NCBI GenBank assembly: GCA_964016885.1
Contig: OZ024741.1
Location: 312,294,001-312,358,000, forward strand
Direction: 5' to 3'
DNA from: Eledone cirrhosa
Taxonomy: Eukaryota
Length of the DNA: 64,000 nucleotides
The position numbers and the translations under genes are program-made. Numbering within the stretch: position 1 is the first letter of the stretch; each line of letters opens with the position of its first letter. The notes below the pieces were generated by a model. The model ran no database searches and was not told where the DNA came from. It was given only the letters and a program-made list of their open reading frames with translations. Positions 1-44,948 of this stretch are shown here, one piece after another.

Positions 1-413
1 AGAGACTTTTATTTCCAGGTACCTTATAAACATGACTTTCCGTATTTATTACTGTTATGAGATATTGTTTTTTTGGGGGGTACCACTTCTCTGTTTTTAG
101 CCTAAGAAAATATCTATATGCGTGTGTAAATACTTACTTGCATACATTTATTTTTTTTAATTAATTGAGTTCTTAACACGCAGGATTGATAATGTTTGTG
201 AAAAAACTAATTAACCCACGTGTATATTATTTTACTTTTCTCGTGACTCGTTGTTGTCTCTCTTTTCCGCTTCGTGACGCTATGATACTTCCTCAGTCAA
301 AAGACTGCTGGAATTTCAAATTTGGCGGTCATTCGATGCGTGAAGGGACAACTTAGCGGACACGAAAATTAACTGCGCTAAGGAATTTTTTCTTATATCA
401 AAGTTTAATGGGC

Positions 414-538
414 TTCCACTGACGATTTATAAGTGCCCACCTAAATATATTCTTAGATGAAAATATGTTAGGCTTCTACATAAACTGGAAACATTCTCCC
501 AACTTGTAGAGAACTTATAATGAAACAATTGTTTGGAA
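414..538 (+). ncRNA. Type I hammerhead ribozyme motif in monomer 1 (repeated once per monomer)
   Basis: Stem I TTCCA(414-418)/TGGAA(534-538); core CTGACGA (419-425); stem II T-TTATAAGT(426-434)/ACTTATAA-T(513-521) enclosing two further hairpins; GAAA (522-525); palindromic stem III CAATTG (526-531); GTT triplet with predicted cleavage after 533. The order matches the CUGANGA...GAAA...NUH consensus. Confidence 0.85.
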
Positions 539-1161
539 AGAGAGATATATTTTAACTTTAATTATGTCTCATATAAAATAATACAACTGGCGTTCCACAA
601 AATGCATATAGTTAGCACCCCAAACACTTAAATTAGGTTTATACTAACGTATAACCTAATGTTTGTTGAGTGAGATGGTTACCAGTCGGAGTTTAGCTTA
701 AAGCTATCTCTGTTATTGTATTAAATATTTTACTTTTGATTTGACCAGTGACTTTTATTTCAAGGTACCTTATAAACATGACTTTCCGTATTTATTACTG
801 TTATGAGATATTGTTTGTTTTTTTTGGGTATCACTTCTCTGTTTTTAGCCTAAGATAATATCTATATGCGTGTGTAAATACTTACATGCATACATTTATT
901 TTTTTAAATTAATTGAGTTCTTAACACGCAGGATTGATAATGTTTGTGAAAAAACTAATTAACCCACGTGTATATTATTTTACTTTTCTCGTGACTCGTG
1001 GTTGTCTCTCTTTTCCGCTTCGTGACGCTATGATACTTCCTCAGTCAAAAGACTGCTGGAATTTCAAATTTGGCGGTCATTCGATGCGTGAAGGGACAAC
1101 TTAGCGGAAATGAAAATTAACTGCGCTAAGGAATTTTTTCTTATAGCAAAGTTTAATGGGC

Positions 1162-1286
1162 TTCCACTGACGATTTATAAGTGCCCACCTAAATATATTC
1201 TTACATGAAAATATGTTAGGCTTCTACATAAACTGGAAACATTCTCCCAACTTGTAGAACACTTATAATGAAACAATTGTTTGGAA
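1162..1286 (+). ncRNA. Type I hammerhead ribozyme motif, monomer 2
   Basis: Same elements as monomer 1; predicted cleavage after 1281, 748 nt from the first site. Confidence 0.85.
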
Positions 1287-4200
1287 AGAGAGATATATTT
1301 TAACTTTAATTATGTCTCATATAAAATAATACAACTGGATTTCCACAAAATACATATAGTTAGCACCCGAAACACTTAAATTAGGTTTATACTAACGTAT
1401 AACCTAATTTTTGTTGAGTGAGATGGTTACCAGTCGGAGTTTAGCTTAAAGCTAGCTCTGTTATTGTATTAAATATTTTACTCTTGATTTGGCCAGAGAC
1501 TTTTATTTCCAGGTACCTTATAAACATGACTTTCCGTATTTATTACTGTTATGAGATATTGTTTGTTTTTTTGGGTATCACTTCTCTGTTTTTAGCCTAA
1601 GAAAATATCTATATGCGTGTGTAAATACTTACATGCATACATTTATTTTTTAAAATTAATTGAGTTCTTAACACGCAGGATTGATAATGTTTGTGAAAAA
1701 ACTAATTAACCCACGTGTATATTATTTTACTTTTCTCGTGACTCGTGGTTGTCTCTCTTTTCCGCTTCGTGACGCTATGATACTTCCTCAGTCAAAAGAC
1801 TGCTGGAATTTCAAATTTGGCGGTCATTCGATGCGTGAAGGGACAACTTAGCGGACACGAAAATTAACTGCGCTAAGGAATTTTTACTTGTATCAAAGTT
1901 TAATGGGCATCCACTGACGATTTATAAGTGCCCACCTAAATATATTCTTACATGAAAATATGTTAGGCTTCTACATAAACTGGAAACAATCTCCCAACTT
2001 GCAGAAAACTTATAATGAAACAATTGTTTGGAAAGAGAGCTATATTTTAACTTTAATTATGTCTCATATAAAATAATACAACTGGCTTTCCGCAAAATAC
2101 ATATAGTTAGCACCCGAAACACTTAAATTAGCTTTATACTAGCGTAAAACCTAATTTTTGTTGAGTGAGATGGTTACCAGTCGGAGTTTAGCTTAAAGCA
2201 ATCTCTGTTATTGTATTAAATATTTTACTCTTGATTTGGCCAGAGACTTTTATTTCCAGGTACCTTATAAACATGACTTTCCGTATTTATTACTGTTATG
2301 AGATATTGTTTTTTTTGGGGGGTATCACTTCTCTGTTTTTAGCCTAAGAAAATATCTATATGCGTGTGTAAATACTTACTTGCATTCATTTATTTTTTTT
2401 AATTAATTGAGTTCTTAACACGCAGGATTGATAATGTTTGTGAAAAAACTAATTAACCCACGTGTATATTATTTTACTTTTCTCGTGACTCGTGGTTGTC
2501 TCTCTTTTACGCTTCGTGACGCTATGATACTTCCTCAGTCAAAAGACTGCTGGAATTTCAAATTTGGCGGTCATTCGATGCGTGAAGGGACAACTTAGCG
2601 GACACGAAAATTAACTGCGCTAAGGAATTTTTTCTTATATCAAAGTTTAATGGGCTTCCACTGACGATTTATAAGTGCCCACCTAAATATATTCTTACAT
2701 GAAAATATGTTAGGCTTCTACATAAACTGGAAACATTCTCCCAACTTGTAGAAAACTTATAATGAAACAATTGTTTGGAAAGAGAGATATATTTTAACTT
2801 TAATTATGTCTCATATAAAATAATACAACTGGATTTCCACAAAATACATATAGTTAGCACCCGAAACACTTAAATTAGGTTTATACTAACGTATAACCTA
2901 ATTTTTGTTGAGTGAGATGGTTACCAGTCGGAGTTTAGCTTAAAGCTATCTCTGTTATTGTATTAAATATTTTACTCTTGATTTGGCCAGAGACTTTTAT
3001 TTCCAGGTACCTTATAAACATGACTTTCCGTATTTATTACTGTTATGAGATATTGTTTTTTTGGGGGGTACCACTTCTCTGTTTTTAGCCTAAGAAAATA
3101 TCTATATGCGTGTGTAAATACTTACTTGCATACATTTATTTTTTTTAATTAATTGAGTTCTTAACACGCAGGATTGATAATGTTTGTGAAAAAACTAATT
3201 AACCCACGTGTATATTATTTTAGTTTTCTCGTGACTCGTTGTTGTCTCTCTTTTCCGCTTCGTGACGCTATGATACTTCCTCAGTCAAAAGACTGCTGGA
3301 ATTTCAAATTTGGCGGTCATTCGATGCGTGAAGGGACAACTTAGCGGACACGAAAATTAACTGCGCTAAGGAATTTTTTCTTATATCAAAGTTTAATGGG
3401 CTTCCACTGACGATTTATAAGTGCCCACCTAAATATATTCTTAGATGAAAATATGTTAGGCTTCTACATAAACTGGAAACATTCTCCCAACTTGTAGAGA
3501 ACTTATAATGAAACAATTGTTTGGAAAGAGAGATATATTTTAACTTTAATTATGTCTCATATAAAATAATACAACTGGCGTTCCACAAAATGCATATAGT
3601 TAGCACCCCAAACACTTAAATTAGGTTTATACTAACGTATAACCTAATGTTTGTTGAGTGAGATGGTTACCAGTCGGAGTTTAGCTTAAAGCTATCTCTG
3701 TTATTGTATTAAATATTTTACTTTTGATTTGACCAGTGACTTTTATTTCAAGGTACCTTATAAACATGACTTTCCGTATTTATTACTGTTATGAGATATT
3801 GTTTGTTTTTTTTGGGTATCACTTCTCTGTTTTTAGCCTAAGATAATATCTATATGCGTGTGTAAATACTTACATGCATACATTTATTTTTTTAAATTAA
3901 TTGAGTTCTTAACACGCAGGATTGATAATGTTTGTGAAAAAACTAATTAACCCACGTGTATATTATTTTACTTTTCTCGTGACTCGTGGTTGTCTCTCTT
4001 TTCCGCTTCGTGACGCTATGATACTTCCTCAGTCAAAAGACTGCTGGAATTTCAAATTTGGCGGTCATTCGATGCGTGAAGGGACAACTTAGCGGAAATG
4101 AAAATTAACTGCGCTAAGGAATTTTTTCTTATAGCAAAGTTTAATGGGCTTCCACTGACGATTTATAAGTGCCCACCTAAATATATTCTTACATGAAAAT

Positions 4201-7200
4201 ATGTTAGGCTTCTACATAAACTGGAAACATTCTCCCAACTTGTAGAACACTTATAATGAAACAATTGTTTGGAAAGAGAGATATATTTTAACTTTAATTA
4301 TGTCTCATATAAAATAATACAACTGGATTTCCACAAAATACATATAGTTAGCACCCGAAACACTTAAATTAGGTTTATACTAACGTATAACCTAATTTTT
4401 GTTGAGTGAGATGGTTACCAGTCGGAGTTTAGCTTAAAGCTAGCTCTGTTATTGTATTAAATATTTTACTCTTGATTTGGCCAGAGACTTTTATTTCCAG
4501 GTACCTTATAAACATGACTTTCCGTATTTATTACTGTTATGAGATATTGTTTGTTTTTTTGGGTATCACTTCTCTGTTTTTAGCCTAAGAAAATATCTAT
4601 ATGCGTGTGTAAATACTTACATGCATACATTTATTTTTTAAAATTAATTGAGTTCTTAACACGCAGGATTGATAATGTTTGTGAAAAAACTAATTAACCC
4701 ACGTGTATATTATTTTACTTTTCTCGTGACTCGTGGTTGTCTCTCTTTTCCGCTTCGTGACGCTATGATACTTCCTCAGTCAAAAGACTGCTGGAATTTC
4801 AAATTTGGCGGTCATTCGATGCGTGAAGGGACAACTTAGCGGACACGAAAATTAACTGCGCTAAGGAATTTTTACTTGTATCAAAGTTTAATGGGCATCC
4901 ACTGACGATTTATAAGTGCCCACCTAAATATATTCTTACATGAAAATATGTTAGGCTTCTACATAAACTGGAAACAATCTCCCAACTTGCAGAAAACTTA
5001 TAATGAAACAATTGTTTGGAAAGAGAGATATATTTTAACTTTAATTATGTCTCATATAAAATAATACAACTGGCTTTCCGCAAAATACATATAGTTAGCA
5101 CCCGAAACACTTAAATTAGCTTTATACTAGCGTAAAACCTAATTTTTGTTGAGTGAGATGGTTACCAGTCGGAGTTTAGCTTAAAGCAATCTCTGTTATT
5201 GTATTAAATATTTTACTCTTGATTTGGCCAGAGACTTTTATTTCCAGGTACCTTATAAACATGACTTTCCGTATTTATTACTGTTATGAGATATTGTTTT
5301 TTTTGGGGGGTATCACTTCTCTGTTTTTAGCCTAAGAAAATATCTATATGCGTGTGTAAATACTTACTTGCATTCATTTATTTTTTTTAATTAATTGAGT
5401 TCTTAACACGCAGGATTGATAATGTTTGTGAAAAAACTAATTAACCCACGTGTATATTATTTTACTTTTCTCGTGACTCGTGGTTGTCTCTCTTTTACGC
5501 TTCGTGACGCTATGATACTTCCTCAGTCAAAAGACTGCTGGAATTTCAAATTTGGCGGTCATTCGATGCGTGAAGGGACAACTTAGCGGACACGAAAATT
5601 AACTGCGCTAACGAATGTTTTCTTGTATCAAAGTTTAATGGGCATCCACTGACGATTTATAAGTGCCCACCTAAATATATTCTTACATGAAAATATGTTA
5701 GGCTTCTACATAAACTGGAAACATTCTCCCAACTTGCAGAAAACTTATAATGAAACAATTGTTTGGAAAGAGAGATATATTTTAACTTTAATTATGTCTC
5801 ATATAAAATAATACAACTGGCTTTCCACAAAATACATATAGTTAGCACCCCAAACACTTAAATTAGGTTTATACTAACGTATAAAGTAATGTTTGTTGAG
5901 TGAGATGGTTACCAGTCGGAGTTTAGCTTAAAGCAATCTCTGTTATTGTATTAAATATTTTACTTTTGATTTGGCCAGAGACTTTTATTTCAAGGTACCT
6001 TATAAACATGACATTCGGTATTTATTAATGTTATGAGATATTGTTTGTTTTTTTGGGTATCACTTCTCTGTTTTTAGCCTAAGAAAATATCTATATGCGT
6101 GTGTAAATACTTACATGCATACATTTATTTTTTAAAATTAATTGAGTTCTTAACACGCAGGATTGATAATGTTTGTGAAAAAACTAATTAACCCACGTGT
6201 ATATTATTTTACTTTTCTCGTGACTCGTGGTTGTCTCTCTTTTCCGCTTCGTGACGCTATGATACTTCCTCAGTCAAAAGACTGCTGGAATTTCAAATTT
6301 GGCGGTCATTCGATGCGTGAAGGGACAACTTAGCGGACACGAAAATTAACTGCGCTAAGGAATTTTTTCTTATATCAAAGTTTAATGGGCTTCCACTGAC
6401 GATTTATAAGTGCCCACCTAAATATATTCTTACATGAAAATATGTTAGGCTTCTACATAAACTGGAAACATTCTCCCAACTTGTAGAAAACTTATAATGA
6501 AACAATTGTTTGGAAAGAGAGATATATTTTAACTTTAATTATGTCTCATATAAAATAATACAACTGGATTTCCACAAAATACATATAGTTAGCACCCGAA
6601 ACACTTAAATTAGGTTTATACTAACGTATAACCTAATTTTTGTTGAGTGAGATGGTTACCAGTCGGAGTTTAGCTTAAAGCTATCTCTGTTATTGTATTA
6701 AATATTTTACTCTTGATTTGGCCAGAGACTTTTATTTCCAGGTACCTTATAAACATGACTTTCCGTATTTATTACTGTTATGAGATATTGTTTTTTTTGG
6801 GGGTACCACTTCTCTGTTTTTAGCCTAAGAAAATATCTATATGCGTGTGTAAATACTTACTTGCATACATTTATTTTTTTTAATTAATTGAGTTCTTAAC
6901 ACGCAGGATTGATAATGTTTGTGAAAAAACTAATTAACCCACGTGTATATTATTTTACTTTTCTCGTGACTCGTGGTTGTCTCTCTTTTGCGCTTCGTGA
7001 CGCTATGATACTTCCTCAGTCAAAAGACTGCTGGAATTTCAAATTTGGCGGTCATTCGATGCGTGAAGGGACAACTTAGCGGACACGAAAATTAACTGCG
7101 CTAAGGAATTTTTTCTTATATCAAAGTTTAATGGGCTTCCACTGACGATTTATAAGTGCCCACCTAAATATATTCTTAGATGAAAATATGTTAGGCTTCT

Positions 7201-10200
7201 ACATAAACTGGAAACATTCTCCCAACTTGTAGAGAACTTATAATGAAACAATTGTTTGGAAAGAGAGATATATTTTAACTTTAATTATGTCTCATATAAA
7301 ATAATACAACTGGCGTTCCACAAAATGCATATAGTTAGCACCCCAAACACTTAAATTAGGTTTATACTAACGTATAACCTAATGTTTGTTGAGTGAGATG
7401 GTTACCAGTCGGAGTTTAGCTTAAAGCTATCTCTGTTATTGTATTAAATATTTTACTTTTGATTTGACCAGTGACTTTTATTTCAAGGTACCTTATAAAC
7501 ATGACTTTCCGTATTTATTACTGTTATGAGATATTGTTTGTTTTTTTTGGGTATCACTTCTCTGTTTTTAGCCTAAGATAATATCTATATGCGTGTGTAA
7601 ATACTTACATGCATACATTTATTTTTTAAAATTAATTGAGTTCTTAACACGCAGGATTGATAATGTTTGTGAAAAAACTAATTAACCCACGTGTATATTA
7701 TTTTACTTTTCTCGTGACTCGTGGTTGTCTCTCTTTTCCGCTTCGTGACGCTATGATACTTCCTCAGTCAAAAGACTGCTGGAATTTCAAATTTGGCGGT
7801 CATTCGATGCGTGAAGGGACAACTTAGCGGAAATGAAAATTAACTGCGCTAAGGAATTTTTTCTTATAGCAAAGTTTAATGGGCTTCCACTGACGATTTA
7901 TAAGTGCCCACCTAAATATATTCTTACATGAAAATATGTTAGGCTTCTACATAAACTGGAAACATTCTCCCAACTTGTAGAACACTTATAATGAAACAAT
8001 TGTTTGGAAAGAGAGATATATTTTAACTTTAATTATGTCTCATATAAAATAATACAACTGGATTTCCACAAAATACATATAGTTAGCACCCGAAACACTT
8101 AAATTAGGTTTATACTAACGTATAACCTAATTTTTGTTGAGTGAGATGGTTACCAGTCGGAGTTTAGCTTAAAGCTAGCTCTGTTATTGTATTAAATATT
8201 TTACTCTTGATTTGGCCAGAGACTTTTATTTCCAGGTACCTTATAAACATGACTTTCCGTATTTATTACTGTTATGAGATATTGTTTGTTTTTTTGGGTA
8301 TCACTTCTCTGTTTTTAGCCTAAGAAAATATCTATATGCGTGTGTAAATACTTACATGCATACATTTATTTTTTAAAATTAATTGAGTTCTTAACACGCA
8401 GGATTGATAATGTTTGTGAAAAAACTAATTAACCCACGTGTATATTATTTTACTTTTCTCGTGACTCGTGGTTGTCTCTCTTTTCCGCTTCGTGACGCTA
8501 TGATACTTCCTCAGTCAAAAGACTGCTGGAATTTCAAATTTGGCGGTCATTCGATGCGTGAAGGGACAACTTAGCGGACACGAAAATTAACTGCGCTAAG
8601 GAATTTTTACTTGTATCAAAGTTTAATGGGCATCCACTGACGATTTATAAGTGCCCACCTAAATATATTCTTACATGAAAATATGTTAGGCTTCTACATA
8701 AACTGGAAACAATCTCCCAACTTGCAGAAAACTTATACTGAAACAATTGTTTGGAAAGAGAGATATATTTTAACTTTAATTATGTCTCATATAAAATAAT
8801 ACAACTGGCTTTCCGCAAAATACATATAGTTAGCACCCGAAACACTTAAATTAGCTTTATACTAGCGTAAAACCTAATTTTTGTTGAGTGAGATGGTTAC
8901 CAGTCGGAGTTTAGCTTAAAGCAATCTCTGTTATTGTATTAAATATTTTACTCTTGATTTGGCCAGAGACTTTTATTTCCAGGTACCTTATAAACATGAC
9001 TTTCCGTATTTATTACTGTTATGAGATATTGTTTTTTTTGGGGGGTATCACTTCTCTGTTTTTAGCCTAAGAAAATATCTATATGCGTGTGTAAATACTT
9101 ACTTGCATTCATTTATTTTTTTTAATTAATTGAGTTCTTAACACGCAGGATTGATAATGTTTGTGAAAAAACTAATTAACCCACGTGTATATTATTTTAC
9201 TTTTCTCGTGACTCGTGGTTGTCTCTCTTTTCCGCTTCGTGACGCTATGATACTTCCTCAGTCAAAAGACTGCTGGAATTTCAAATTTGGCGGTCATTCG
9301 ATGCGTGAATGGACAACTTAGCGGACACGAAAATTAACTGCGCTAACGAATGTTTTCTTGTATCAAAGTTTAATGGGCATCCACTGACGATTTATAAGTG
9401 CCCACCTAAATATATTCTTACATGAAAATATGTTAGGCTTCTACATAAACTGGAAACATTCTCCCAACTTGCAGAAAACTTATAATGAAACAATTGTTTG
9501 GAAAGAGAGATATATTTTAACTTTAATTATGTCTCATATAAAATAATACAACTGGATTTCCACAAAATACATATAGTTAGCACCCGAAACACTTAAATTA
9601 GGTTTATACTAACGTATAACCTAATTTTTGTTGAGTGAGATGGTTACCAGTCGGAGTTTAGCTTAAAGCTATCTCTGTTATTGTATTAAATATTTTACTC
9701 TTGATTTGGCCAGAGACTTTTATTTCCAGGTACCTTATAAACATGACTTTCCGTATTTATTACTGTTATGAGATATTGTTTTTTTTGGGGGTACCACTTC
9801 TCTGTTTTTAGCCTAAGAAAATATCTATATGCGTGTGTAAATACTTACTTGCATACATTTATTTTTTTTAATTAATTGAGTTCTTAACACGCAGGATTGA
9901 TAATGTTTGTGAAAAAACTAATTAACCCACGTGTATATTATTTTACTTTTCTCGTGACTCGTGGTTGTCTCTCTTTTGCGCTTCGTGACGCTATGATACT
10001 TCCTCAGTCAAAAGACTGCTGGAATTTCAAATTTGGCGGTCATTCGATGCGTGAAGGGACAACTTAGCGGACACGAAAATTAACTGCGCTAAGGAATTTT
10101 TTCTTATATCAAAGTTTAATGGGCTTCCACTGACGATTTATAAGTGCCCACCTAAATATATTCTTAGATGAAAATATGTTAGGCTTCTACATAAACTGGA

Positions 10201-13200
10201 AACATTCTCCCAACTTGTAGAGAACTTATAATGAAACAATTGTTTGGAAAGAGAGATATATTTTAACTTTAATTATGTCTCATATAAAATAATACAACTG
10301 GCGTTCCACAAAATGCATATAGTTAGCACCCCAAACACTTAAATTAGGTTTATACTAACGTATAACCTAATGTTTGTTGAGTGAGATGGTTACCAGTCGG
10401 AGTTTAGCTTAAAGCTATCTCTGTTATTGTATTAAATATTTTACTTTTGATTTGACCAGTGACTTTTATTTCAAGGTACCTTATAAACATGACTTTCCGT
10501 ATTTATTACTGTTATGAGATATTGTTTGTTTTTTTTGGGTATCACTTCTCTGTTTTTAGCCTAAGATAATATCTATATGCGTGTGTAAATACTTACATGC
10601 ATACATTTATTTTTTAAAATTAATTGAGTTCTTAACACGCAGGATTGATAATGTTTGTGAAAAAACTAATTAACCCACGTGTATATTATTTTACTTTTCT
10701 CGTGACTCGTGGTTGTCTCTCTTTTCCGCTTCGTGACGCTATGATACTTCCTCAGTCAAAAGACTGCTGGAATTTCAAATTTGGCGGTCATTCGATGCGT
10801 GAAGGGACAACTTAGCGGAAATGAAAATTAACTGCGCTAAGGAATTTTTTCTTATAGCAAAGTTTAATGGGCTTCCACTGACGATTTATAAGTGCCCACC
10901 TAAATATATTCTTACATGAAAATATGTTAGGCTTCTACATAAACTGGAAACATTCTCCCAACTTGTAGAACACTTATAATGAAACAATTGTTTGGAAAGA
11001 GAGATATATTTTAACTTTAATTATGTCTCATATAAAATAATACAACTGGATTTCCACAAAATACATATAGTTAGCACCCGAAACACTTAAATTAGGTTTA
11101 TACTAACGTATAACCTAATTTTTGTTGAGTGAGATGGTTACCAGTCGGAGTTTAGCTTAAAGCTAGCTCTGTTATTGTATTAAATATTTTACTCTTGATT
11201 TGGCCAGAGACTTTTATTTCCAGGTACCTTATAAACATGACTTTCCGTATTTATTACTGTTATGAGATATTGTTTGTTTTTTTGGGTATCACTTCTCTGT
11301 TTTTAGCCTAAGAAAATATCTATATGCGTGTGTAAATACTTACATGCATACATTTATTTTTTAAAATTAATTGAGTTCTTAACACGCAGGATTGATAATG
11401 TTTGTGAAAAAACTAATTAACCCACGTGTATATTATTTTACTTTTCTCGTGACTCGTGGTTGTCTCTCTTTTCCGCTTCGTGACGCTATGATACTTCCTC
11501 AGTCAAAAGACTGCTGGAATTTCAAATTTGGCGGTCATTCGATGCGTGAAGGGACAACTTAGCGGACACGAAAATTAACTGCGCTAAGGAATTTTTACTT
11601 GTATCAAAGTTTAATGGGCATCCACTGACGATTTATAAGTGCCCACCTAAATATATTCTTACATGAAAATATGTTAGGCTTCTACATAAACTGGAAACAA
11701 TCTCCCAACTTGCAGAAAACTTATACTGAAACAATTGTTTGGAAAGAGAGATATATTTTAACTTTAATTATGTCTCATATAAAATAATACAACTGGCTTT
11801 CCGCAAAATACATATAGTTAGCACCCGAAACACTTAAATTAGCTTTATACTAGCGTAAAACCTAATTTTTGTTGAGTGAGATGGTTACCAGTCGGAGTTT
11901 AGCTTAAAGCAATCTCTGTTATTGTATTAAATATTTTACTCTTGATTTGGCCAGAGACTTTTATTTCCAGGTACCTTATAAACATGACTTTCCGTATTTA
12001 TTACTGTTATGAGATATTGTTTTTTTTGGGGGGTATCACTTCTCTGTTTTTAGCCTAAGAAAATATCTATATGCGTGTGTAAATACTTACTTGCATTCAT
12101 TTATTTTTTTTAATTAATTGAGTTCTTAACACGCAGGATTGATAATGTTTGTGAAAAAACTAATTAACCCACGTGTATATTATTTTACTTTTCTCGTGAC
12201 TCGTGGTTGTCTCTCTTTTCCGCTTCGTGACGCTATGATACTTCCTCAGTCAAAAGACTGCTGGAATTTCAAATTTGGCGGTCATTCGATGCGTGAATGG
12301 ACAACTTAGCGGACACGAAAATTAACTGCGCTAACGAATGTTTTCTTGTATCAAAGTTTAATGGGCATCCACTGACGATTTATAAGTGCCCACCTAAATA
12401 TATTCTTACATGAAAATATGTTAGGCTTCTACATAAACTGGAAACATTCTCCCAACTTGCAGAAAACTTATAATGAAACAATTGTTTGGAAAGAGAGATA
12501 TATTTTAACTTTAATTATGTCTCATATAAAATAATACAACTGGCTTTCCACAAAATACATATAGTTAGCACCCCAAACACTTAAATTAGGTTTATACTAA
12601 CGTATAAAGTAATGTTTGTTGAGTGAGATGGTTACCAGTCGGAGTTTAGCTTAAAGCAATCTCTGTTATTGTATTAAATATTTTACTTTTGATTTGGCCA
12701 GAGACTTTTATTTCAAGGTACCTTATAAACATGACATTCGGTATTTATTAATGTTATGAGATATTGTTTGTTTTTTTGGGTATCACTTCTCTGTTTTTAG
12801 CCTAAGAAAATATCTATATGCGTGTGTAAATACTTACATGCATACATTTATTTTTTTTAATTAATTGAGTTCTTAACACGCAGGATTGATAATGTTTGTG
12901 AAAAAACTAATTAACCCACGTGTATATTATTTTACTTTTCTCGTGACTCGTGGTTGTCTCTCTTTTCCGCTTCGTGACGCTATGATACTTCCTCAGTCAA
13001 AAGACTGCTGGAATTTCAAATTTGGCGGTCATTCGATGCGTGAAGGGACAACTTAGCGGACACGAAAATTAACTGCGCTAAGGAATTTTTTCTTATATCA
13101 AAGTTTAATGGGCTTCCACTGACGATTTATAAGTGCCCACCTAAATATATTCTTAGATGAAAATATGTTAGGCTTCTACATAAACTGGAAACATTCTCCC

Positions 13201-25200: not shown

Positions 25201-28200
25201 TATATTTTAACTTTAATTATGTCTCATATAAAATAATACAACTGGCTTTCCACAAAATACATATAGTTAGCACCCGAAACACTTAAATTAGGTTTATACT
25301 AACGTATAACCTAATGTTTGTTGAGTAAGATGGTTACCAGTCGGAGTTTAGCTTAAAGCTATCTCTGTTATTGTATTAAATATTTTACTCTTGATTTGGC
25401 CAGAGACTTTTATTTCCAGTTACCTTATAAACATGACTTTCCGTATTTATTACTGTTATGAGATATTGTTTTTTTTTGGGGGGGGGGGTATCACTTCTCT
25501 GTTTTTAGCCTAAGAAAATATCTATATGCGTGTGTAAATACTTACATGCATACATTTATTTTTTTAAATTAATTGAGTTCTTAACACGCAGGATTGATAA
25601 TGTTTGGGAAAAAACTAATTAACCCACGTGTATATTATTTTACTTTTCGCGTGACTCGTGGTTGTCTCTCTTTTGCGCTTCGTGACGCTATGATACTTCC
25701 TCAGTCAAAAGACTGCTGGAATTTCAAATTTGGCGGTCATTCGATGCGTGAAGGGTCAACTTAGCGGACACGAAAATTAACTGCGGTAAGGAATTTTTTC
25801 TTATATGAAAGTTTAATGGGCTTCCACTGACGATTTATAAATGCCCACCTAAATATATTCTTACATGAAAATATGTTAGGCTTCTACATAAACTGGAAAC
25901 ATTCTCCCAACTTGTAGAAAACTTATAATGAAACAATTGTTTGGAAAGAGAGATATATTTTAACTTTGATTATGTCTCATATAAAATAATACAACTGGCT
26001 TTCCGCAAAATACATATAGTTAGCACCCCAAACACTTAAATTAGGTTTATACTAACGTATAACCTAATGTTTGTTGAGTGAGATGGTTACCAGTCGGAGT
26101 TTAGCTTAAAGCTATCTCTGTTATTGTATTAAATATTTTACTCTTGATTTGGCCAGAGACTTTTATTTCCAGGTACCTTATAAACATGACTTTCCGTATT
26201 TATTACTGTTATGAGATATTGTTTTTTTTTTTTGGGGTATCACTTCTCTGTTTTTAGCCTAAGAAAATATCTATATGCGTGCGTAAATACTTACATGCAT
26301 ACATTTATTTTTTTAAGTTAATTGAGTTCTTAACACGCAGGATTGATAATGTTTGTGAAAAAAATAATTAATCCACGTGTATATTATTTTACTTTTCTCG
26401 TGACTCGTGGTTGTCTCTCTTTTCCGCTTCGTGACGCTATGATACTTCCTCAGTCAAAAGACTGCTGGAATTTCAAATTTGGCGGTCATTCGATGCGTGA
26501 AGGGACAATTTAGCGGACACGAAAATTAACTGCGGTAAGGAATTTTTTCTTATATCAAAGTTTAATGGGCTTCCACTGACGATTTATAAGTGCCCACCTA
26601 AATATATTCTTACATGAAAATATGTTAGGCTTCTACATAAACTGGAAACATTCTCCCAACTTGTAGAAAACTTATAATGAAACAATTGTTTGGAAAGAGA
26701 GATATATTTTAACTTTAAATATGTCTCATATAAAATAATACAACTGGCTTTCCGCAAAATACATATAGTTAGCACCCCAAACACTTAAATTAGGTTTATA
26801 CTAACGTATAACCTAATGTTTGTTGAGTGAGATGGTTACCAGTCGGAGTTTAGCTTAAAGCTATCTCTGTTATTGTATTCAATATTTTACTCTTGATTTG
26901 GCCAGAGACTTTTATTTCCAGGTACCTTATAAACATGACTTTCCGTATTTATTACTGTCATGAGATATCGTTTGTTTTTTTGGGTATCACTTCTCTGATT
27001 TTAGCTTAAGAAAATATCTATATGCGTGTGTAAATACCTACATGCATACATTTATTTTTTTAAGTTAATTGAGTTCTTAACACGCAGGACTGATAATGTT
27101 TGTGAAAAAACTAATTAACCCACGTGTATATTATTTTACTATTCTCGTGACCCGTGGTTGTCTCTCTTTTCCGCTTCGTGACGCTATGATACTTCCTCAG
27201 TCAAAAGACTGCTGGAATTTCAAATTTGGCGGTCATTCGATGCGTGAAGGGACAACTTAGCGGACACGAAAATTAACTGCGCTAACGAATGTTTTCTCGT
27301 ATCAAAGTTTAATGGGCATCAACTGACGATTTATAAGTGCCCACCTAAATATATTCTTACATGAAAATATGTGAGGCTTCTACATAAACTGGAAACATTC
27401 TCCCAACTTGCAGAAAACTTATAAAGAAACAATTGTTTGGAAAGAGAGATATATTTTAACTTTAATTATGTCTCATATAAAATAATGCAACTGGCTTTCC
27501 ACAAAATACATATAGTTAGCACCCGAAACACTTAAATTAGGTTTATACTAACGTATAACCTAATTTTTGTTGAGTGAGATGGTTACCAGTCGGAGTTTAG
27601 CTTAAAGCTATCTCTGTTATTGTATTAAATATTTTACTCTTGATTTGGCCAGAGTCTTTTATTTCCAGGTACCTTATAAACATGACTTTCCGTATTTATT
27701 ACTGTTATGAGATATTGTTTGTTTTTTTTGGGTATCACTTCTCTGTTTTTAGCCTAAGAAAATATCTATATGCGTGTGTAAATACTTACATGCATACATT
27801 TATTTTTTTAAATTAATTGAGTTCTTAACACGCAGGATTGATAATGTTTGTGAAAAAACTAATTAACCCACGTGTATATTATTTTACTTTTCTCGTGACT
27901 CGTGGTTGTCTCTCTTTTCCGCTTAGTGACGTTATGATACTTCCTCAGTCAAAAGACTGCTGGAATTTCAAATTTGGCGATCATTCGATGCGTGAAGGGT
28001 CAACTTAGCGGACACGAAAATTAACTGCGGTAAGGAATTTTTTCTTATATCAAAGTTTAATGGGCTTCCACTGACGATTTATAAGTGTCCACCTAAATAT
28101 ATTCTTACATGAAAATATGTTAGGCTTCTACATAAACTGGAAACATTCTCCCAACTTGTAGAAAACTTATAATGAAACAATTGTTTGGAAAGAGAGATAT

Positions 28201-29145
28201 ATTTTAACTTTAATTATGTCTCATATAAAATAATACAACTGGCTTTCCACAAAATACATATAGTTAGCACCCGAAACACTTAAATTGGGTTTATACTAAC
28301 GTATAACCTAATTTTTGTTGAGTGAGATGGTTACCAGTCGGAGTTTAGCTTAAAGCTATCTCTGTTATCGTATTAAATATTTTACTCATGATTTGGCCAG
28401 AGACTTTTATTTCCAGGTACCTTATAAACACGACTTTCCGTATTTATTACTGTTATGAGATATTGTTTGTTTTTTGGGGTATCACTTCTCTGTTTTTAGC
28501 TTAAGAAAATATCTATATGCGTGTGTAAATACTTACATGCATACATTTATTTTTTTAAGTTAATTGAGTTCATAACACGCAGGACTGATAATGTTTGTGA
28601 AAAAACTAATTAACCCACGTGTATTTTATTTTACTTTTCTCGTGACCCGTGGTTGTCTCTCTTTTCCGCTTCGTGACGCTATGATACTTCCTCAGTCAAA
28701 AGACTGCTGGAATTTCAAATTTGGCGGTCATTCGATGCGTAAAGGGACAACTTAGCGGACACGAAAATTAACTGCGCTAACGAATGTTTTCTTGTATCAA
28801 AGTTTAATCGGCATCCACTGACGACTTATAAGTGTCCACCTAAATATATTCTTACATGAAAATATGTTAGGCTTCTACATAAACTGGAAACATTCTCCCA
28901 ACTTGTAGAAAACTTATAATGAAACAATTGTTTGGAAAGAGAGATATATTTTAACTTTAATTATGTCTCATATAAAATAATACAACTGGCTTTCCACAAA
29001 ATACATATAGTTAGCACCCGAAACACTTAAATTAGGTTTATTCTAACGTATAACCTAATGTTTGTTGAGTAAGATGGTTACCAGTCGGAGTTTAGCTTAA
29101 AGCTATCTCTGTTATTGTATTAAATATTTTACTCTTGATTTGGCC

Positions 29146-32100
29146 AGAGACTTTTATTTCCAGTTACCTTATAAACATGACTTTCCGTATTTATTACTGT
29201 TATGAGATATTGATTGTTTTTTGGGGTATCACTTCTCTGTTTTTAGCCTAAGAAAATATCTATATGCGTGTGTAAATACTTACATGCATACATTTATTTT
29301 TTAAAATTAATTGAGTTCTTAACACGCGGAATTAATAATGGTTTTGAAATAACTAATTAACCCGCGTGTATTAAATATTTTACTCTTAATTTGGCCCGAA
29401 ATTTACATTCCCAAATGCCTTTTAAAGCGTAACATTCCGTATTTATTACAGTTATGAGATGTGGTTTGTTATTTAGGTATCACTTTCTCTGTTTTTAGCC
29501 TAAGAAATTATCTATATTTGTGTGTAATTAATACACGCTTACATTTATTTAAAAAAAATTAATTGAGTTCTTAACACACATGATTGATACTGTTTTTGAA
29601 AAAACTAATTAACCCAGGTGTATACTATTTTACTTTTCTTGTGACTCGTGGTTGTCTCCCTTTTCCGCTTCGTGACGCTATGATACTTCCTCAGTCAAAA
29701 GAGTGCTGGAATTTCAAATTTGGCGGTCATTCGATGCGTGAAGGGACAACTTAGCGGAAACGAAAATTAACAGCGGTACGGAATTTTTTCTTACATCAAA
29801 GTTTAATGGGCTTCCACTGACGATTCATAAGTGCCCACGTAAATATATTCTTACATGAAAATATGTTAGGCTTCTACATAAACTGGAAACATTCTCCCAA
29901 CTTGTAGAAAACTTATAATGAAACAATTGTTTTGAAAGAGAGATATATTTTAACTTTAATTATGTCTCATATAAAATAATACAACTGGCTTTCCACAAAA
30001 TACATATAGTTAGCACCCGAAATACTTAAATTAGGTTGATACTAACGTATAACCTAATGTTTGTTGAGTGAGATGGTTACCAGTCGGAGTTTAGCTTAAA
30101 GCTATCTCTGTTATTGTATTAAATATTTTACTCTTGATTTGGCCAGAGACTTTTATTTCCAGTTACCTTATAAACATGACTTTCCGTATTTATTACTGTT
30201 ATGAGATATTGATTGTTTTTTGGGGTATCACTTCTCTGTTTTTAGCCTAAGAAAATATCTATATGCGTGTGTAAATACTTACATGCATACATTAATTTTT
30301 TCAAGTTAATTGAGTTCTTAACACGCGGAATTAATAATGGTTTTGAAATAACTAATTAACCCGCGTGTAATAAATATTTTACTCTTAATTTGGCCAGAGA
30401 TTTACACTCCTAAATGCCTTTTAAAGCGTAACTTTCCGTATTTATTACAGTTATGAGATGTGGTTTGTTATTTAGGTATCACTTTCTCTGTTCTTAGCCT
30501 AAGAAATTATCTATATTTGTGTGTAATTAATACACGCTTACATTTATTTAAAAAAAATTAATTGAGTTCTTAACACGCGGGATTGATACTGTTTTTGAAA
30601 AAACTAATTAACCCAGGTGTATATTATTTTACTTTTCTTGTGACTCGTGGTTGTCTCCCTTTTCCGCTTCGTGACGCTATGATACTTCCTCAGCCAAAAG
30701 AGTGCTGGAATTTCAAATTTCGCGGTCATTCGATGCGTGAAGGGACAACTTAGCGGACACGAAAATTAACTGCGGTAAGGAATTTTTTCTTTTATCAAAG
30801 TTTAATGGGCTTCCACTGACGATTTATAAGTGCCCACCTAAATATATTCTTACATGAAAATATGTTAGGCTTCTACATAAACTGGAAAGATTCTCCCAAC
30901 TTGTAGAAAACTTATAATGAAACAATTGTTTGGAAAGAGAGATATATTTTAACTTTAATTATGTCTCATATAAAATAATACAACTGGCTTTCCACAAAAT
31001 ACATATAGTTAGCACCCGAAACACTTAAATTAGGTTTATACTAACGTATAACCTAATGTTTGTTGAGTAAGATGGTTACCAGTCGGAGTTTAGCTTAAAG
31101 CTATCTCTGTTATTGTATTAAATATTTTACTCTTGATTTGGCCAGAGACTTTTATTTCCAGGTACCTTATAAACATGACTTTCCGTATTTATTACTGTTA
31201 TGAGATATTGATTGTTTTTTGGGGTATCACTTCTCTGTTTTTAGCCTAAGAAAATATCTATATGCGTGTGTAAATACTTACATGCATACATTTATTTTTT
31301 AAAATTAATTGAGTTCTTAACACGCGGAATTAATAATTGTTTTGAAATAACTAATTAACCCGCGTGTATTAAATATTTTACTCTTAATTTGGCCCGAGAT
31401 TTACATTCCCAAATGCCTTTTAAAGCGTAACATTCCGTATTTATTACAGTTATGAGATGTGGTTTGTTATTTAGGTATCACTTTCTCTGTTTTTAGCCTA
31501 AGAAATTATCTATATTTGTGTGTAATTAATACACGCTTACATTTATTTAAAAAAAATTAATTGAGTTCTTAACACGTATGATTGATACTGTTTTTGAAAA
31601 AACTAATTAACCCAGGTGTATACTATTTTACTTTTCTTGTGACTCGTGGTTGTCTCCCTTTTCCGCTTCGTGACGCTATGATACTTCCTGAGTCAAAAGA
31701 GTGCTGGAATTTCAAATTTGGCGGTCATTCGATGCGTGAAGGGACAACTTAGCGGAAACGAAAATTAACAGCGGTACGGAATTTTTTCTCATATCAAAGT
31801 TTAATGGGCTTCCACTGACGATTCATAAGTGCCCACGTAAATATATTCTTACATGAAAATATGTTAGGCTTCTACATAAACTGGAAACATTCTCCCAACT
31901 TGTAGAAAACTTATAATGAAACAATTGTTTTGAAAGAGAGATATATTTTAACTTTAATTATGTCTCATATAAAATAATACAACTGGCTTTCCACAAAATA
32001 CATATAGTTAGCACCCGAAATACTTAAATTAGGTTGATACTAACGTATAACCTAATGTTTGTTGAGTGAGATGGTTACCAGTCGGAGTTTAGCTTAAAGC

Positions 32101-35100
32101 TATCTCTGTTATTGTATTAAATATTTTACTCTTGATTTGGCCAGAGACTTTTATTTCCAGTTACCTTATAAACATGACTTTCCGTATTTATTACTGTTAT
32201 GAGATATTGATTGTTTTTTGGGGTATCACTTCTCTGTTTTTAGCCTAAGAAAATATCTATATGCGTGTGTAAATACTTACATGCATACATTAATTTTTTC
32301 AAGTTAATTGAGTTCTTAACACGCGGAATTAATAATGGTTTTGAAACAACTAATTAACCCGCGTGTATTAAATATTTTACTCTTAATTTGGCCAAAGATT
32401 TACATTCCCAAATGCCATTTAAAGCGTAACTTTCCGTATTTATTTCAGTTATGAGATGTCGTTTGTTACTTAGGTATCACTTTCTCTGTTTTTAGCCTAA
32501 GAAAATATCTATAATTGTGTGTAATTAATACACGCATACATTTATTTAAAAAAAATTGAGTTCTTAACTCGCAGGATTGATAATTTTTTTGAAAATATAA
32601 TTAACCCACGTGTATATTATTTTACTTTTCTCGTGACTAGTGGTTGTCTCCCTTTTCCGCTTCGTGACGCTATGGTACTTGCTCAGTCAAAAGAGTGCTG
32701 GAATTTCAAATTTGGCGGTCATTCGATGCGTGAAGGGACAACTTAGCGGACACCAAAATTAACTGCGGTAAGGAATTTTTTCTTATATCAAAGTTTAATG
32801 GTCTTCCAATGACGATTTATAAGTGACCACCTAAATATATTCTTACATGGAAATATGTTAGGCTTCTACATAAACTGGAAACATTCTCCCAACTTGTAGA
32901 AAACTTATAATGAAACATTGTTTGGAAAGGGAGATATATTTTAACTTTAATTATGTCTCATATAAAATAATACAACTGGCTTTCCACAAAATACATATAG
33001 TTAGCACCCGAAACACTTAAATTAGGTTTATACTAACGTATAACCTAATGTTTGTTGAGTGAGATGGTTACCAGTCGGAGTTTAACATAAAGCTATCTCT
33101 GTTATTGTATTAAATATTTTACTCTTGATTTGGCCAGAGACTTTTATTTCCAGGTACCTTATAAACATGACTTTCCGTATTTATTACTGTTATGAGATAT
33201 TGTTTGTTTTTTGGGGTATCACTTCTCTGTTTTTAGCCTAAGAAAATATCTATATGCGTGTGTAAATACTTACATGCATACATTTATTTTTTTTAATTAA
33301 TTGAGTTCTTAACACGCGGAATTAATAATGGTTTTGAAATAACTAATTAACCCGCGTTTATTAAATATTTTACTCTTAATTTGGCCAGAGATTTACATTC
33401 CCAAATGCCATTTAAAGCGTAACTTTCCGTATTTATTTCAGTTAAGAGATGTCGTTTGTTACTTAGGTATCACTTTCTCTGTTTTTAGCCTAAGAAAATA
33501 TCTATATATGTGTGTAATTAATACACGCATACATTTATTTAAAAAAAATTGAGTTCTTAACTCGCTGGATTGATAATGTTTTTGAAAATATAATTAACCC
33601 ACGTGTATATTATTTTACTTTTCCCGTGACTAGTGGTTGTCTCCCTTTTCCGCTTCGTGACGCTATGATACTTGCTCAGTCAAAAGAGTGCTGGAATTTC
33701 AAATTTGGCGGTCATTCGATGCGTGAAGGGACAGCTTAGCGGACACCAAAATTAACTGCGGTAAGGAATTTGTTCTTATATCAAAGTTTAATGGGCTTCC
33801 ACTGACGATTTATAAGTACCCACCTAAATATATTCTTACATGAAAATATTTTAGGCTTCTACATATACTGGAAACATTCTCCCAACTTGCAGAAAACTTA
33901 TAATGAAACAATTGTTTGGAAAGAGAGATATATTTTAAATTTAATTATGTCTCATATAAAATAATACAACTGGCTTTCCACAAAATACATATAGTTAGCA
34001 GCCCAAACACTTAAATTAGGTTTATACTAACGTATAACCTAATGTTTGTTGAGTGAGATGGTTACCAGTCGGAGTTTAGCTTAAAGCTATCACTGTTATT
34101 GTATTAAATATTTTACTCTTGATTTGGCCAGAGACTTTTATTTCCAGGTACCTTATAAACATGACTTTCCGTATTTATTACTGTTATGAGATATTGTTTG
34201 TTTTTTTGGGTATCACTTCTCTGTTTTTAGCCTAAGAAAATATCTATATGCGTGTGTAAATACTTACATGCATACATTAATTTTTTTAAGTTAATTGAGT
34301 TCTTAACACGCGGAATTAATAATGGTTTTGAAATAACTAATTAACCCGCGTGTAATAAATATTTTACTCTTAATTTGGCCAGAGATTTACATTCCCAAAT
34401 GCCTTTTAAAGCGTAACTTTCCGTATTTATTACAGTTATGAGATGTGGTTTGTTATTTAGGTATCACTTTCTCTGTTCTTAGCCTAAGAAAATATCTATA
34501 TTTGTGGGTAATTAATACACGCATACATTTATTTAAAAAAAATTAATTGAGTTCTTAACACGCATGATTGATAATATTTTTGAAAATCAATTACTCCGGG
34601 TGTATATTATTTTACTTTTCTCGTGACTCGTTGTTGTCTCCCTTTTCCGCTTCGTGACGCTATGATACTTCCTCAGTCAAAAGAGTGCTGGAATTTCAAA
34701 TTTGGCGGTCATTCGATGCGTGAAGGGACAACTTAGCGGACACGAAAATTAACTGAGGTAAGCAATTTTTTCTTTTATCAAAGTTTAATGGGCTTCCACT
34801 GACGATTTATAAGTGCCCACCTAAATATATTCTTACATGAAAATATATTAGGCTTCTACATAAACTGGAAACATTCTCCCAACTTGTTGAAAACTTATAA
34901 TGAAACAATTGTTTGGAAAGAGAGATATATTTTAACTTTAATTATGTCTCATATAAAATAATAAACTGGCTTTCCACAAAATACATATAGTTAGCACCCG
35001 AAACACTTAAATTAGGTTTATACTAACGTATAACCTAATGTTTGTCGAGTGAGATGGTTACCAGTCGGAGTTTAGCTTAAAGCTATCTCTGTTATAGTAT

Positions 35101-37085
35101 TAAATATTTTACTCTTGATTTGGCCAGAGACTTTTATTTCCGGGTACCTTATAAACATGACTTTCCGTATTTATTACTGTTATGAGATATTGTTTGTTTT
35201 TTGGGGTATCACTTCTCTGTTTTTAGCCTGAGAAAATATGTATATGCGTGTGTAAATACTTACATGCATACATTTATTTTTTTAAATTAATTGAGTTCTT
35301 AACACGCGGAATTAATAATGGTTTTGAAATAACTAATTAACCCGCGTTTATTAAATATTTTACTCTTAATTTGGCCAGAGATTTACATTCCCAAATGCCT
35401 TTTAAAGCGTACCTTTATTACAGTTATGAGATGTGGTTTGTTATTTAGGTATCACTTTCTCTGTTTTTAGCCTAAGAAATTATCTATATTTGTTTCGTAA
35501 TTAATACACGCTTACATTTATTTAAAAAAAATTAATTGAGTTCTTAACACGCAGGATTGATAATGTTTTTGAAAATCAATTACTCCGGGTGTATATTATT
35601 TTACTTTTCTCGTGACTCGTGGTTGTCTCCCTTTTCCGCTTCGTGACGCTATGATACTTCCTCAGTCAAAAGAGTGCTGGAATTTCAAATTTGGCGGTCA
35701 TTCGATGCGTGAAGGGACAACTTAGCGGACACGAAAATTAACTGCGGTAAGGAATTTTTTCTTTTATCAAAGTTTAATGGGCTTCCACTGACGATTTATA
35801 AGTGCCCACCTAAATATATTCTTACATGAAAATATGTTAGGCTTCTACATAAACTGGAAACATTCTCCCAACTTGTTGAAAACTTATAATGAAACAATTG
35901 TTTGGAAAGAGAGATATATTTTAACATTAATTATGTCTCATATAAAATAATACAACTGGTTTTCCACAAAATACATATAGTTAGCACTCAAACACTTAAA
36001 TTAGGTTTATACTAATATATAACCTAATGTTTGTTGAGTGAGATGGTTACCAGTCGGAGTTTAGCTTAAAGCTATCTCTGTTATTGTATTAAATATATTA
36101 TTCTTGATTTGGCCAGAGACTTTTATTTCCAGGTACCTTATAAACATGACTTTCCGTATTTATTACTGTTATGAGATATTGTTTGTTTTTTGGGTATCAC
36201 TTCTCTGTTTTTAGCCTAAGAAAATATCTATATGCGTGTGTAAATACTTACATGCATACATTTATTTTTTTTATTTAATTGAGTTCTTAACACGCGGAAT
36301 TAATAATGGTTTTGAAATAACTAATTAACCCGCGTGTATTAAATATTTTGCTCTTTATTTGGCCAGAGATTTACATTCCCAAATGCCTTTTAAAGCGTAA
36401 CTTTCCGTATTTATTACAGTTATGAGATGTGGTTTGTTATTTAGGTATCACTTTCTCTGTTTTTAGCCTAAGAAAATATCTATATTTGTGTGTAATTAAT
36501 ACACGCATACATTTATTTAAAAAATATTAATTGAGTTCTTAACACGCATGATTGATAATGTTTTTGAAAAAACTAATTAACCCACGTGTATATTATTTTA
36601 CTTTTCTCGTGACTCGTGGTTGTCTCCCTTTTCCGCTTCGTGATGCTATGATACTTCCTCAGTCAAAAGTCTGCTGGAATTTCAAATTTGGCGGTCATTC
36701 GATGCGTGAAGGGACAACTTAGCGGACACGAAAATTAACTGCGGTAAGGAATTTTTTCTTATATCAAAGTTTAATGGGCTTCCACTGACGATTTATAAGT
36801 GCCCACCTAAATATATTCTTACATGAAAATATGTTAGGCTTCTACATAAACTGGAAACATTCTCCCAACTTGTAGAAAACTTATAATGAAACAATTGTTT
36901 GGAAAGAGAGATATATTTTAACTTTAATTATATCTCATATAAAATAATACAACTGGCTTTCCACAAAATACATATAGTTAGCACCCGAAACACTTAAATT
37001 AGGTTTATACTAACGTATAACCTAATGTTTGTTGAGTGAGATGGATACCAGTCGGAGTTTAGCTTAAAGTTATCTGTTATTGTAT

Positions 37086-37090
<5 letters not shown>
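29146..37090 (+). repeat. Long-monomer layer (~1 kb) containing a diverged ~250-bp internal tandem duplication
   Basis: After ...TTAACCCGCGTG each unit restarts with TATTAAATATTTTACTCTTAATTTGGCC and a diverged second copy of the first ~250 bp. Confidence 0.95.
36780..36904 (+). ncRNA. Type I hammerhead ribozyme motif, last monomer
   Basis: TTCCA-CTGACGA-TTTATAAGT...ACTTATAAT-GAAA-CAATTG-TT-TGGAA is intact in the terminal long-type monomer. Confidence 0.85.

Positions 37091-37132
<42 letters not shown>
37089..37132. repeat. (TA)n microsatellite at the array boundary
   Basis: Direct reading. Confidence 0.98.
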
Positions 37133-39930: not shown

Positions 39931-39960
39931 TAATCTTCTATACACAATCATACACACCCG

Positions 39961-44043: not shown

Positions 44044-44440
44044 ATATTTGACCCAACATAGTCATCTAGCCCCATTTTTACTGGTAGCTAATAAGTTAAA
44101 TAGCTATAACTAACTTAGATAATTATAAGTTACCTCCCCTACATTGTCTCTCAATTAAAAAAATAAAAACATTAGCACTTAACTATAAACTACACACAAT
44201 TTCTAATCTCTCGAGGAGTTAGTTCCCCTGAAACCACCCTCTAATCAGTAAGGTAAAAATGTCCATTGGCGGCCATCTTGTTACCCATAGGCAGATCTAA
44301 CACAATGCAGCCTCGACAGTAGAATACTGCTTGATTATGGCAGACAATTGATACATCCAGGACACCATAGTGAAATACCAATATATGGAACATTTCATTA
44401 TGTAACATTCTTTCCTTATTTTAATTTATATTCCTTTGAA

Positions 44441-44867: not shown

Positions 44868-44948
<81 letters not shown>

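Follow-up and report, generated by a model that had tools for sequence, protein, structure and literature searches.

Retrozymes and Penelope-like elements (PLEs) are the closest described systems to the locus studied here, a tandem array of hammerhead-bearing units in Eledone cirrhosa. The consensus monomers of retrozymes range from 51 to 972 bp and their arrays reach 300 units (Li, Clavereau & Pollet 2026 preprint, 10.64898/2026.07.22.740005); coral retrozyme 62-mers have also been reported. The discussion of the same preprint proposes local tandem growth after insertion, and in Xenopus 24 of the 57 retrozyme families matched a known element. A circle model was proposed for these elements (PMC4209133; PMC7229834), and in the axolotl the hammerhead HHR_Amex2, whose helix II has a U.U at its base, shows good cleavage as a dimer and forms circles (PMC7229834). 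In PAc, a PLE of the anole, uncleaved RNA is reverse-transcribed from an internal start point downstream of the hammerhead; mutation of the core leaves insertion normal, cleavage depends on protein, and no RNA-seq ends were found at the cut (PMC11167929). Almost all Hydra families of PLEs target (TA)n (PMC8557442), which the Naiads likewise prefer. Most of the tabulated Hydra hammerheads read ctgatgat...tgaa, i.e., with a U.U at 10.1-11.1 (File S2 of PMC8557442).

We analysed a window of 64,000 nucleotides (nt), i.e., the whole stretch from 312,294,001 to 312,358,000 of contig OZ024741.1 in the assembly GCA_964016885.1. An earlier note made from its letters had described a candidate retrozyme-like satellite of more than 37 kb. 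We propose a two-step origin, to which we give a probability of about 0.78. The unit of ~1 kb would be a non-autonomous Penelope-type retroelement, that is, a retrozyme lacking long terminal repeats (non-LTR retrozyme), and one of its insertions would later have grown to 80 units by DNA recombination.

A dispersed family with a fixed 3' end

The copies of the unit family were found on many chromosomes. An exact 16-mer of the unit had 260 matches in the genome compared with 2 for the control, and a flank-and-stem pattern of the unit had 1,486 matches compared with 0. We examined 32 dispersed loci (12 non-array loci among 30 listed, plus 20 chosen from the family's rows among the first 100 listed matches of the 75-105-nt spacer pattern described below), and 30 of them were found to share one 3' end followed by TA repeats. 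The TA run was recognised by an automatic rule in 24 of these and by eye in six, where it was short or interrupted. One of the other two loci ran into further unit sequence past the fetched stretch and one ended ~20 nt short. Two of the 32 loci, L112 and L113, seem to have arisen by local duplication. The positions of the 5' ends were spread over the whole unit, most of them behind TA runs. Several loci were partial tandems and the copies examined carried one or two hammerheads; dimers were present, and in these as in the array two or more adjoining tandem units each carried a complete type I hammerhead. The full-context insertions examined spanned the predicted cut intact and ended ~189 nt past it. 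The junction types of the array, at both ends, were those of the dispersed copies.

The unit is non-coding, and its longest ATG reading frame was 54 amino acids. A six-frame search of the unit found no similarity to the PLE endonuclease, and no PLE frame was continuous with the unit in any of 20 stretches of 5.4 kb. The dispersed close relatives of the array contained two diverged 252-nt modules per unit. Judged from its sequence, the unit is a non-LTR retrozyme in architecture and on its testable features, because the fixed 3' end, the variable 5' truncation and the (TA)n targets are as Hydra-clade PLEs leave them. The retrozyme-like element of the earlier note is therefore borne out by a dispersed, non-coding, tandem hammerhead family with a fixed 3' end. 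Its suggestion that a Penelope reverse transcriptase could copy the RNA gains support from the (TA)n junctions and the fixed 3' end, from which we infer the enzyme.

The genome holds a Hydra-clade enzyme with a like hammerhead type near its 3' end, and one such fragment lies in the window.

43522..44870, + strand: 3' part of a Hydra-clade PLE, outside the array, with a GIY-YIG-type endonuclease, its own long-loop hammerhead and a (TA)n end

The GIY-YIG-type fragment covers 43522-44043 and is followed downstream by a hammerhead with a CCGAUGA core and a 94-nt spacer at 44441-44559. In 29 of the 30 best relatives, a hammerhead was found ~500 nt past the endonuclease, and most of them ended in (TA)n; Pfam did not recognise the GIY-YIG fragments. 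A GIY-YIG-type endonuclease was present upstream, on the same strand, in six of 30 listed loci with long-spacer hammerheads (three clusters). A full element (L153) contained hammerhead, open reading frame (ORF) and hammerhead between TA runs, together with the RWK, DKT, CxCx5C and CxxC motifs; CxH was found in its relatives, and all five motifs are diagnostic of the Hydra clade. The hammerhead at 44441-44559 (+ strand) belongs to an abundant autonomous Hydra-clade PLE family with a fixed U4C core, CCGAUGA, of which the genome contained 1,523 motifs compared with 1 for the control. This family was also found to have two alternative 3' ends, ~140 and ~330 nt past the hammerhead.

The hammerhead motif and its large loop II

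The features of the motif in the array are as follows.

414..538, + strand: first type I hammerhead, with stem I, core boxes, stem II, stem III and predicted cut
410..438, + strand: candidate pseudoknot of GGGC (410-413) with GCCC (435-438), from a stem I extension to loop II
440..511, + strand: loop II insert, a multiway junction that sits on stem II and is made by hairpin A (440-472) with hairpin B (474-511)
36776..36904, + strand: last array hammerhead

The first hammerhead contained stem I (414-418/534-538), CUGACGA (419-425), a U.U pair (426/521), stem II (427-434/513-520), GAAA (522-525), the palindromic stem III (525-532) and U at position 17. Stem III consisted of only two pairs, within the palindrome ACAAUUGU, and the predicted cut followed GUU, after 533, as had been claimed. 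The earlier note described a canonical type I motif, and the order of its parts was confirmed, but not its size, because 96 nt separate the core boxes and stem II encloses two additional hairpins. Likewise, the 8-bp stem II was present but did not adjoin the core directly, as the U.U at 10.1-11.1 sits between them; the stem I sequence TTCCA held in part, with ATCCA also occurring. The usual type I motif has a Watson-Crick 10.1-11.1 pair and a small loop II, in place of which the array has the U.U and the 96-nt spacer.

We found 47 motifs in the window, which confirms the observation of the earlier note. CUGANGA, GAAA and NUH were in type I order, and both core boxes were intact in 46 of the 47 units, whereas the boxes and stems I-III were all intact in 37. 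Among the 33 units upstream of the window, 15 had intact motifs. A relaxed type I descriptor gave 39 matches on the + strand of the array and 0 on the - strand; when 3,000 dinucleotide shuffles of one monomer were read on both strands (6,000 in all), it matched none of them. The Rfam hammerhead families gave no match at gathering in the window and none at E<=10 in positions 2250-3800. The sequence CUGAGGA, present once per unit on the minus strand, was considered as a second ribozyme and rejected, as it lacked a type I fold, the only type checked.

The candidate 4-bp pseudoknot was 92.6% paired and conserved, with no two-sided change and 0/8 variable columns (p=0.2). By-eye inspection across families found no consistent general pseudoknot between stem I and loop II. 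An older dispersed subfamily (L104:4851-4990, L106, L111) was found to contain a single 252-nt module in a ~730-nt unit, ~81% identical; its hairpin A was stronger and capped by a C(UACG)G-type loop.

Within the family, the core was examined by eye in the first 100 listed of the 1,486 pattern matches, where position N7, left free in the pattern, was T/A/C in 67/20/13 and the other six core positions were canonical in 592 of 600 cells. Among 31 copies, changes common to at least three copies were found in 1 of 35 columns of stems I and II, U.U, candidate pseudoknot and N17, and in 47 of 206 flank columns (Fisher p=0.005, with columns that are not independent and 11 of the 31 copies picked for near identity). 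In 34 aligned copies 96.4% of the cells paired, in a structure drawn from these same sequences. Two-sided changes within the family were limited to three pairs, all in the insert hairpins.

Similar motifs were searched across the 3.0-Gb genome with the pattern CTGANGA-spacer-GAAACAATTGT and with control patterns. The matches numbered 8,113 for spacers of 10-40 nt, 1,817 for 44-74 nt and 5,902 for 75-105 nt, compared with 6, 7 and 4 for the controls. The genome therefore contains ~7,700 matches with spacers of 44-105 nt, a minority of which are short motifs caught through an upstream box. A metagenome pattern scan gave 0 matches. The ~15,800 motifs with a common stem III palindrome were also found to range in core spacer from 11 nt (a two-pair stem II after U.U) to ~98 nt, with position 10.1-11.1 mostly non-Watson-Crick.

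A sample of 54 listed loci, contig 1 first, in which each of two pairs is a single motif counted twice, fell into 14 clusters, and ten of these had inserts of at least 40 nt. The pairing in these ten clusters was 0.80 in stem I and 0.86 in stem II, whereas swapped partners gave 0.44 and 0.57, and 0 of 5,000 reached the observed values; the count includes L088, one of these clusters, which resembles an inverted-duplication artefact. Position 17, free in the pattern, was U, A or C and never G in all 54 listed loci. The fold of the insert had z scores of -5.4 to -0.2 (19 copies). Inverted hammerhead pairs, tens to thousands of bases apart, were frequent (L074-L077, L083-L084, L095-L096, L154, L155), and such pairs are the 5'-inverted structure typical of PLE insertions.

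The three helices around the core therefore have the support of covariation between families, whereas within the family they are conserved and do not covary. These patterns argue that the hammerhead is not due to chance and is kept by selection in the mobile lineage, in agreement with the architecture put forward in the earlier note. Its most unusual feature, not singled out in the earlier note, is the large structured loop II, which is common to the array hammerheads and several autonomous PLEs of the same genome. A bolder reading is that the structured loop II of 40-90 nt acts as a functional domain and belongs to a subclass of hammerheads that has so far gone unrecognised. In at least ten PLE-related families here it would have been lengthened, independently or repeatedly, and it would bind the PLE protein and control cleavage, with ~1-kb circles arising only when the copying enzyme is present. 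We put this forward as a tentative and rather unlikely proposal. If it is true, such motifs would escape short-loop descriptors, and the PLE clades reported as hammerhead-less or with a 'half core' may carry long-loop motifs.

In predicted folds, the hammerhead lay 3.9-7.2 kcal/mol above the minimum in the monomer of all ten copies and stem III had a probability of 0.09, whereas the palindrome duplex reached -6.4 kcal/mol; dimeric or protein-assisted cleavage is therefore expected, and cleavage in this model probably needs dimers or protein. The whole unit folded better than its shuffles (z -3.8, 20 shuffles). No A or B boxes of RNA polymerase III (pol III) were found on the + strand, and a bacterial promoter scan, whose model is not applicable here, gave chance level. 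Three contig-only runs of unknown kind from one sample, which say nothing on expression or circles, gave full cover with depth rising to the 3' end and had no end pile-ups and no 252-nt joint.

In the proposed mobilisation, the unit RNA would be bound by the reverse transcriptase and endonuclease of a Hydra-clade PLE, which would nick (TA)n and begin reverse transcription from a constant internal point, ~189 nt 3' of the cut. Reverse transcription would then cross the intact cut site and stop variably, leaving 5'-truncated monomers and partial tandems, and the weak PLE-type hammerhead probably cuts only as a dimer, via ACAAUUGU, or with protein help. As the insertions span the cut and end ~189 nt beyond it, we infer that the template is either uncleaved RNA or a re-ligated circle. 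Uncleaved multimeric RNA seems the likelier of the two, on balance, and a re-ligated circle is a quite plausible though less favoured template.

The intact cut site would also suit a different role, in which the motif persists chiefly because it gives the PLE enzyme a folded signal for protein binding or regulation, with cleavage in vivo negligible or irrelevant. The disfavoured monomer fold points in the same direction, and the U4C core is fixed in the 1,523 motifs of a successful family; G5A and U4C are expected to impair cleavage in the usual hammerhead numbering. The PAc hammerhead mutants that insert normally, with no RNA-seq ends at the cut (PMC11167929), agree with it as well. However, every catalytic position, the freedom of N7 and the NUH rule hold from one family to the next, which a binding scaffold would not require, and we consider this role a distinct but minority possibility.

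Layout and growth of the array

The window part of the array and its features are as follows.

1..37088, + strand: tandem array, window part, 47 of 80 units
1..29124, + strand: domain of 746-753-nt units with 4/5/7/9-mer higher-order repeats
29125..37088, + strand: eight units of 989-999 nt that each hold a module A and a module B, 252 nt long and diverged from one another; the form seen dispersed in the genome
726..975, + strand: one instance of the A-to-B crossover module by which the 747-nt unit is defined, array-only, with a breakpoint interval common to 38/38
36900..37088, + strand: 189-nt tail between the predicted cut and the element's fixed 3' end, the putative start of reverse transcription
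37089..37132, no strand: (AT)22 target microsatellite at the 3' junction

The whole array was found to be 63,967 nt long with 80 hammerhead motifs and (TA)n on both sides, and is thus larger than the >37 kb of the earlier note. It starts 26.9 kb 5' of the window, at G000:C2:312267122, where a rearranged 5' beginning follows a (TA)n run, and its right end at 37088 is the fixed 3' end of the element, followed by (AT)22. The 47 motifs of the window, all on the + strand, extend from 414 to 36904 with 38 intervals of 746-753 nt followed by 8 of 989-999 nt, as expected from the unit sizes of ~747 nt and ~1 kb given earlier. Identical units were found at lags 4, 5, 7, 8 and 9, so that the higher-order structure suspected in the earlier note is present. 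The mean divergence between the units was 3.9%, whereas blocks at fixed lags showed 0.0% difference over 545 nt. The array is, as a satellite, a long head-to-tail run with multimeric repeat blocks made by recombination; its sequence contained no N and its junctions were unique on both flanks.

By 30 diagnostic columns, all 38 single-module units of the window proved to be A-to-B hybrids that share a single breakpoint interval, and in this they differed from the older dispersed subfamily with one module. The hybrid-module pattern had 36 matches in the genome, all inside the array and none dispersed, whereas 31 of the 34 matches of the matching two-module control pattern were dispersed (p=8e-17). 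No dispersed copy of the 747-nt unit is visible to this exact pattern, and the 747-nt unit is therefore not borne out as the copied template that the earlier note had supposed. Of the 33 upstream units, 18 had damaged cores, mostly G5A, copied within higher-order blocks. The higher-order repeats, the amplified core-damaged units, the single crossover and the array-confined hybrid together indicate that the array grew by DNA recombination without needing the ribozyme. One partial-tandem insertion at the locus would have grown to 80 units by unequal recombination at the DNA level, and one crossover between the two 252-nt modules would have given the 747-nt unit.

The array could instead be an active source locus, transcribed on the + strand and self-processed into linear or circular 747-nt RNAs that are copied back into the genome. 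The 37 intact units of the window would agree with this, as would the tandem layout, which permits dimeric folding through the palindrome duplex (-6.4 kcal/mol), the fold of the unit (z -3.8) and the axolotl HHR_Amex2, also with U.U, which cuts well when dimeric and makes circles (PMC7229834). We nevertheless regard it as unlikely, given that the hybrid is dispersed in 0/36 matches and the control in 31/34, that core-mutant units were amplified, that no pol III box was found on the + strand, and that only one of nine Xenopus retrozyme dimers cut in vitro (10.64898/2026.07.22.740005). The length of the array as an artefact, with the repeat expanded by the assembler, is less probable still; the several blocks identical at fixed lags (0.0% over 545 nt) could suggest it, but the many different lags, the graded divergence, the absence of N and the unique junctions on both sides argue otherwise. 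That one rolling-circle reverse transcription of a circular RNA wrote the whole array, whose 5' and 3' junctions are those of one insertion, is very improbable and largely refuted by its higher-order structure, with units differing by 3.9% on average, nested 4-9-mer repeats, two crossover-related unit lengths, and one or two hammerheads in the dispersed copies examined.

Several points weigh against the two-step origin. Stems I-III are nearly invariant within the family, without compensatory change, and relatedness can yield the three two-sided pairs; the core kept in 46 of the 47 window units is compatible with selection there, though not proof of it. The fixed U4C in an abundant autonomous family means that retention of the motif need not mean efficient cleavage. 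The absence of dispersed 747-nt hybrids could reflect the youth of the array. The targeting of (TA)n is not exclusive to the Hydra clade, as the Naiads prefer it too. No autonomous PLE resembling the unit was found among the sampled loci, a small share of the 55,069 first-look endonuclease candidates, and the partner and its clade are therefore deduced from the target and the junction pattern. A search with stem I kept and the family stem II letter changed gave eight matches, all of them family variants. The partner search by blastn, tblastn and a hidden Markov model of the endonuclease gave only AT-rich noise, and the PLE fragments present in 3 of 20 flanks, 1.6-3.1 kb upstream, were not continuous with the unit.

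Other features were found in the window beyond the array. A tRNA-like match (37438-37510, +; Rfam 54.5 bits) lies 350 nt past it and is possibly the head of a short interspersed element, and a long inverted repeat with arms of ~150 nt was seen by eye, with mirrored ORFs, at 39620-39940. A PLE fragment of another family (42197-42706, -) lacked most of the reverse transcriptase, and a short hammerhead-like motif (44997-45035, -) had a CCGAAGA core, a 21-nt spacer and a weak stem I. A broken long interspersed element with endonuclease and reverse transcriptase (47338-52839, -), an 829-amino-acid reverse transcriptase frame with a C-terminal nuclease-like part (53072-56184, +) and PIF1 helicase fragments (57254-59229, +) were found further downstream.

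Comparison with known systems

The locus would record the birth of a satellite from a retrozyme, with insertion junctions, one datable crossover, higher-order blocks and decay of the ribozyme, and the hybrid module serves as an internal marker that separates retrotransposition from growth at the DNA level. PLE-type hammerheads form a natural series within one genome, with spacers from 11 nt to ~98 nt, including the U4C family, which makes the role of PLE hammerheads, and of circles as template, directly testable. The long-loop series is also a warning that short-loop searches undercount ribozymes. The splitting of a hammerhead by a large insert has a precedent, as the discontinuous Clec2 hammerhead is reportedly a single-copy type III motif in a mammalian 3' untranslated region with its insert in loop I.

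Like the metazoan non-LTR retrozymes (PMC7229834; 10.64898/2026.07.22.740005), the array consists of non-coding head-to-tail units, each with a type I hammerhead and a weak palindromic helix III, occurs from monomers to long multimers and has PLEs in the same genome. It differs from them in the 96 nt between its core boxes, in its branched loop II and in the lack of a PLE homologous to the pseudo-long terminal repeat (pLTR) among the sampled loci. Its unit of ~1 kb compares with circles of 170-400 nt (PMC7229834) and lies at the top of the 51-972 bp range (10.64898/2026.07.22.740005). The earlier note considered the size of the monomer and the length of the array unusual for the class; this finds no support in the published range, the arrays of up to 300 units and the coral 62-mers.

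The Hydra-clade PLE hammerheads (Craig et al., 2021, PMC8557442) share the U.U-type 10.1-11.1, the short stem I, the palindromic stem III, U, A or C at the cut, the position near a fixed 3' end and the (TA)n targets. Their loop II is 3-10 nt long, with a table maximum of 35 nt in a spike-moss PLE, whereas that of the array is ~80 nt, and the retrozyme unit, unlike these PLEs, has no ORF. The U.U is therefore ordinary for the Hydra clade, where published hammerheads mostly have it with loops of 3-10 nt, but the large loop is not. In the minimal PLE hammerheads (Cervera & de la Pena, 2014, PMC4209133) and PAc (Frangieh et al., 2024, PMC11167929), helix II of 7-8 bp and helix I of 4-5 bp are similar to ours, and dimer dependence, low activity and a start of reverse transcription downstream of the hammerhead are predicted alike here. 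They keep G10.1-C11.1 and small loops, unlike the array motif, and PAc is of the Poseidon clade with an ORF that starts in the hammerhead, unlike the non-coding unit. The newt satellite 2 and the axolotl Rtz_331/353 (PMC7229834) are also satellite arrays with dimer-dependent hammerheads, a dependence predicted here, but their units are 330-350 nt with a small loop II.

In a full-text search of the accessible literature, the largest loop was 35 nt and no report of a PLE or retrozyme hammerhead with a branched loop II of 40-90 nt was found; supplements of earlier surveys may list such variants. The class itself is a known one, and there is nothing exceptional in the mechanism of this satellite, which grew from a retrozyme. 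What sets the case apart is the covarying series of oversized loops II.

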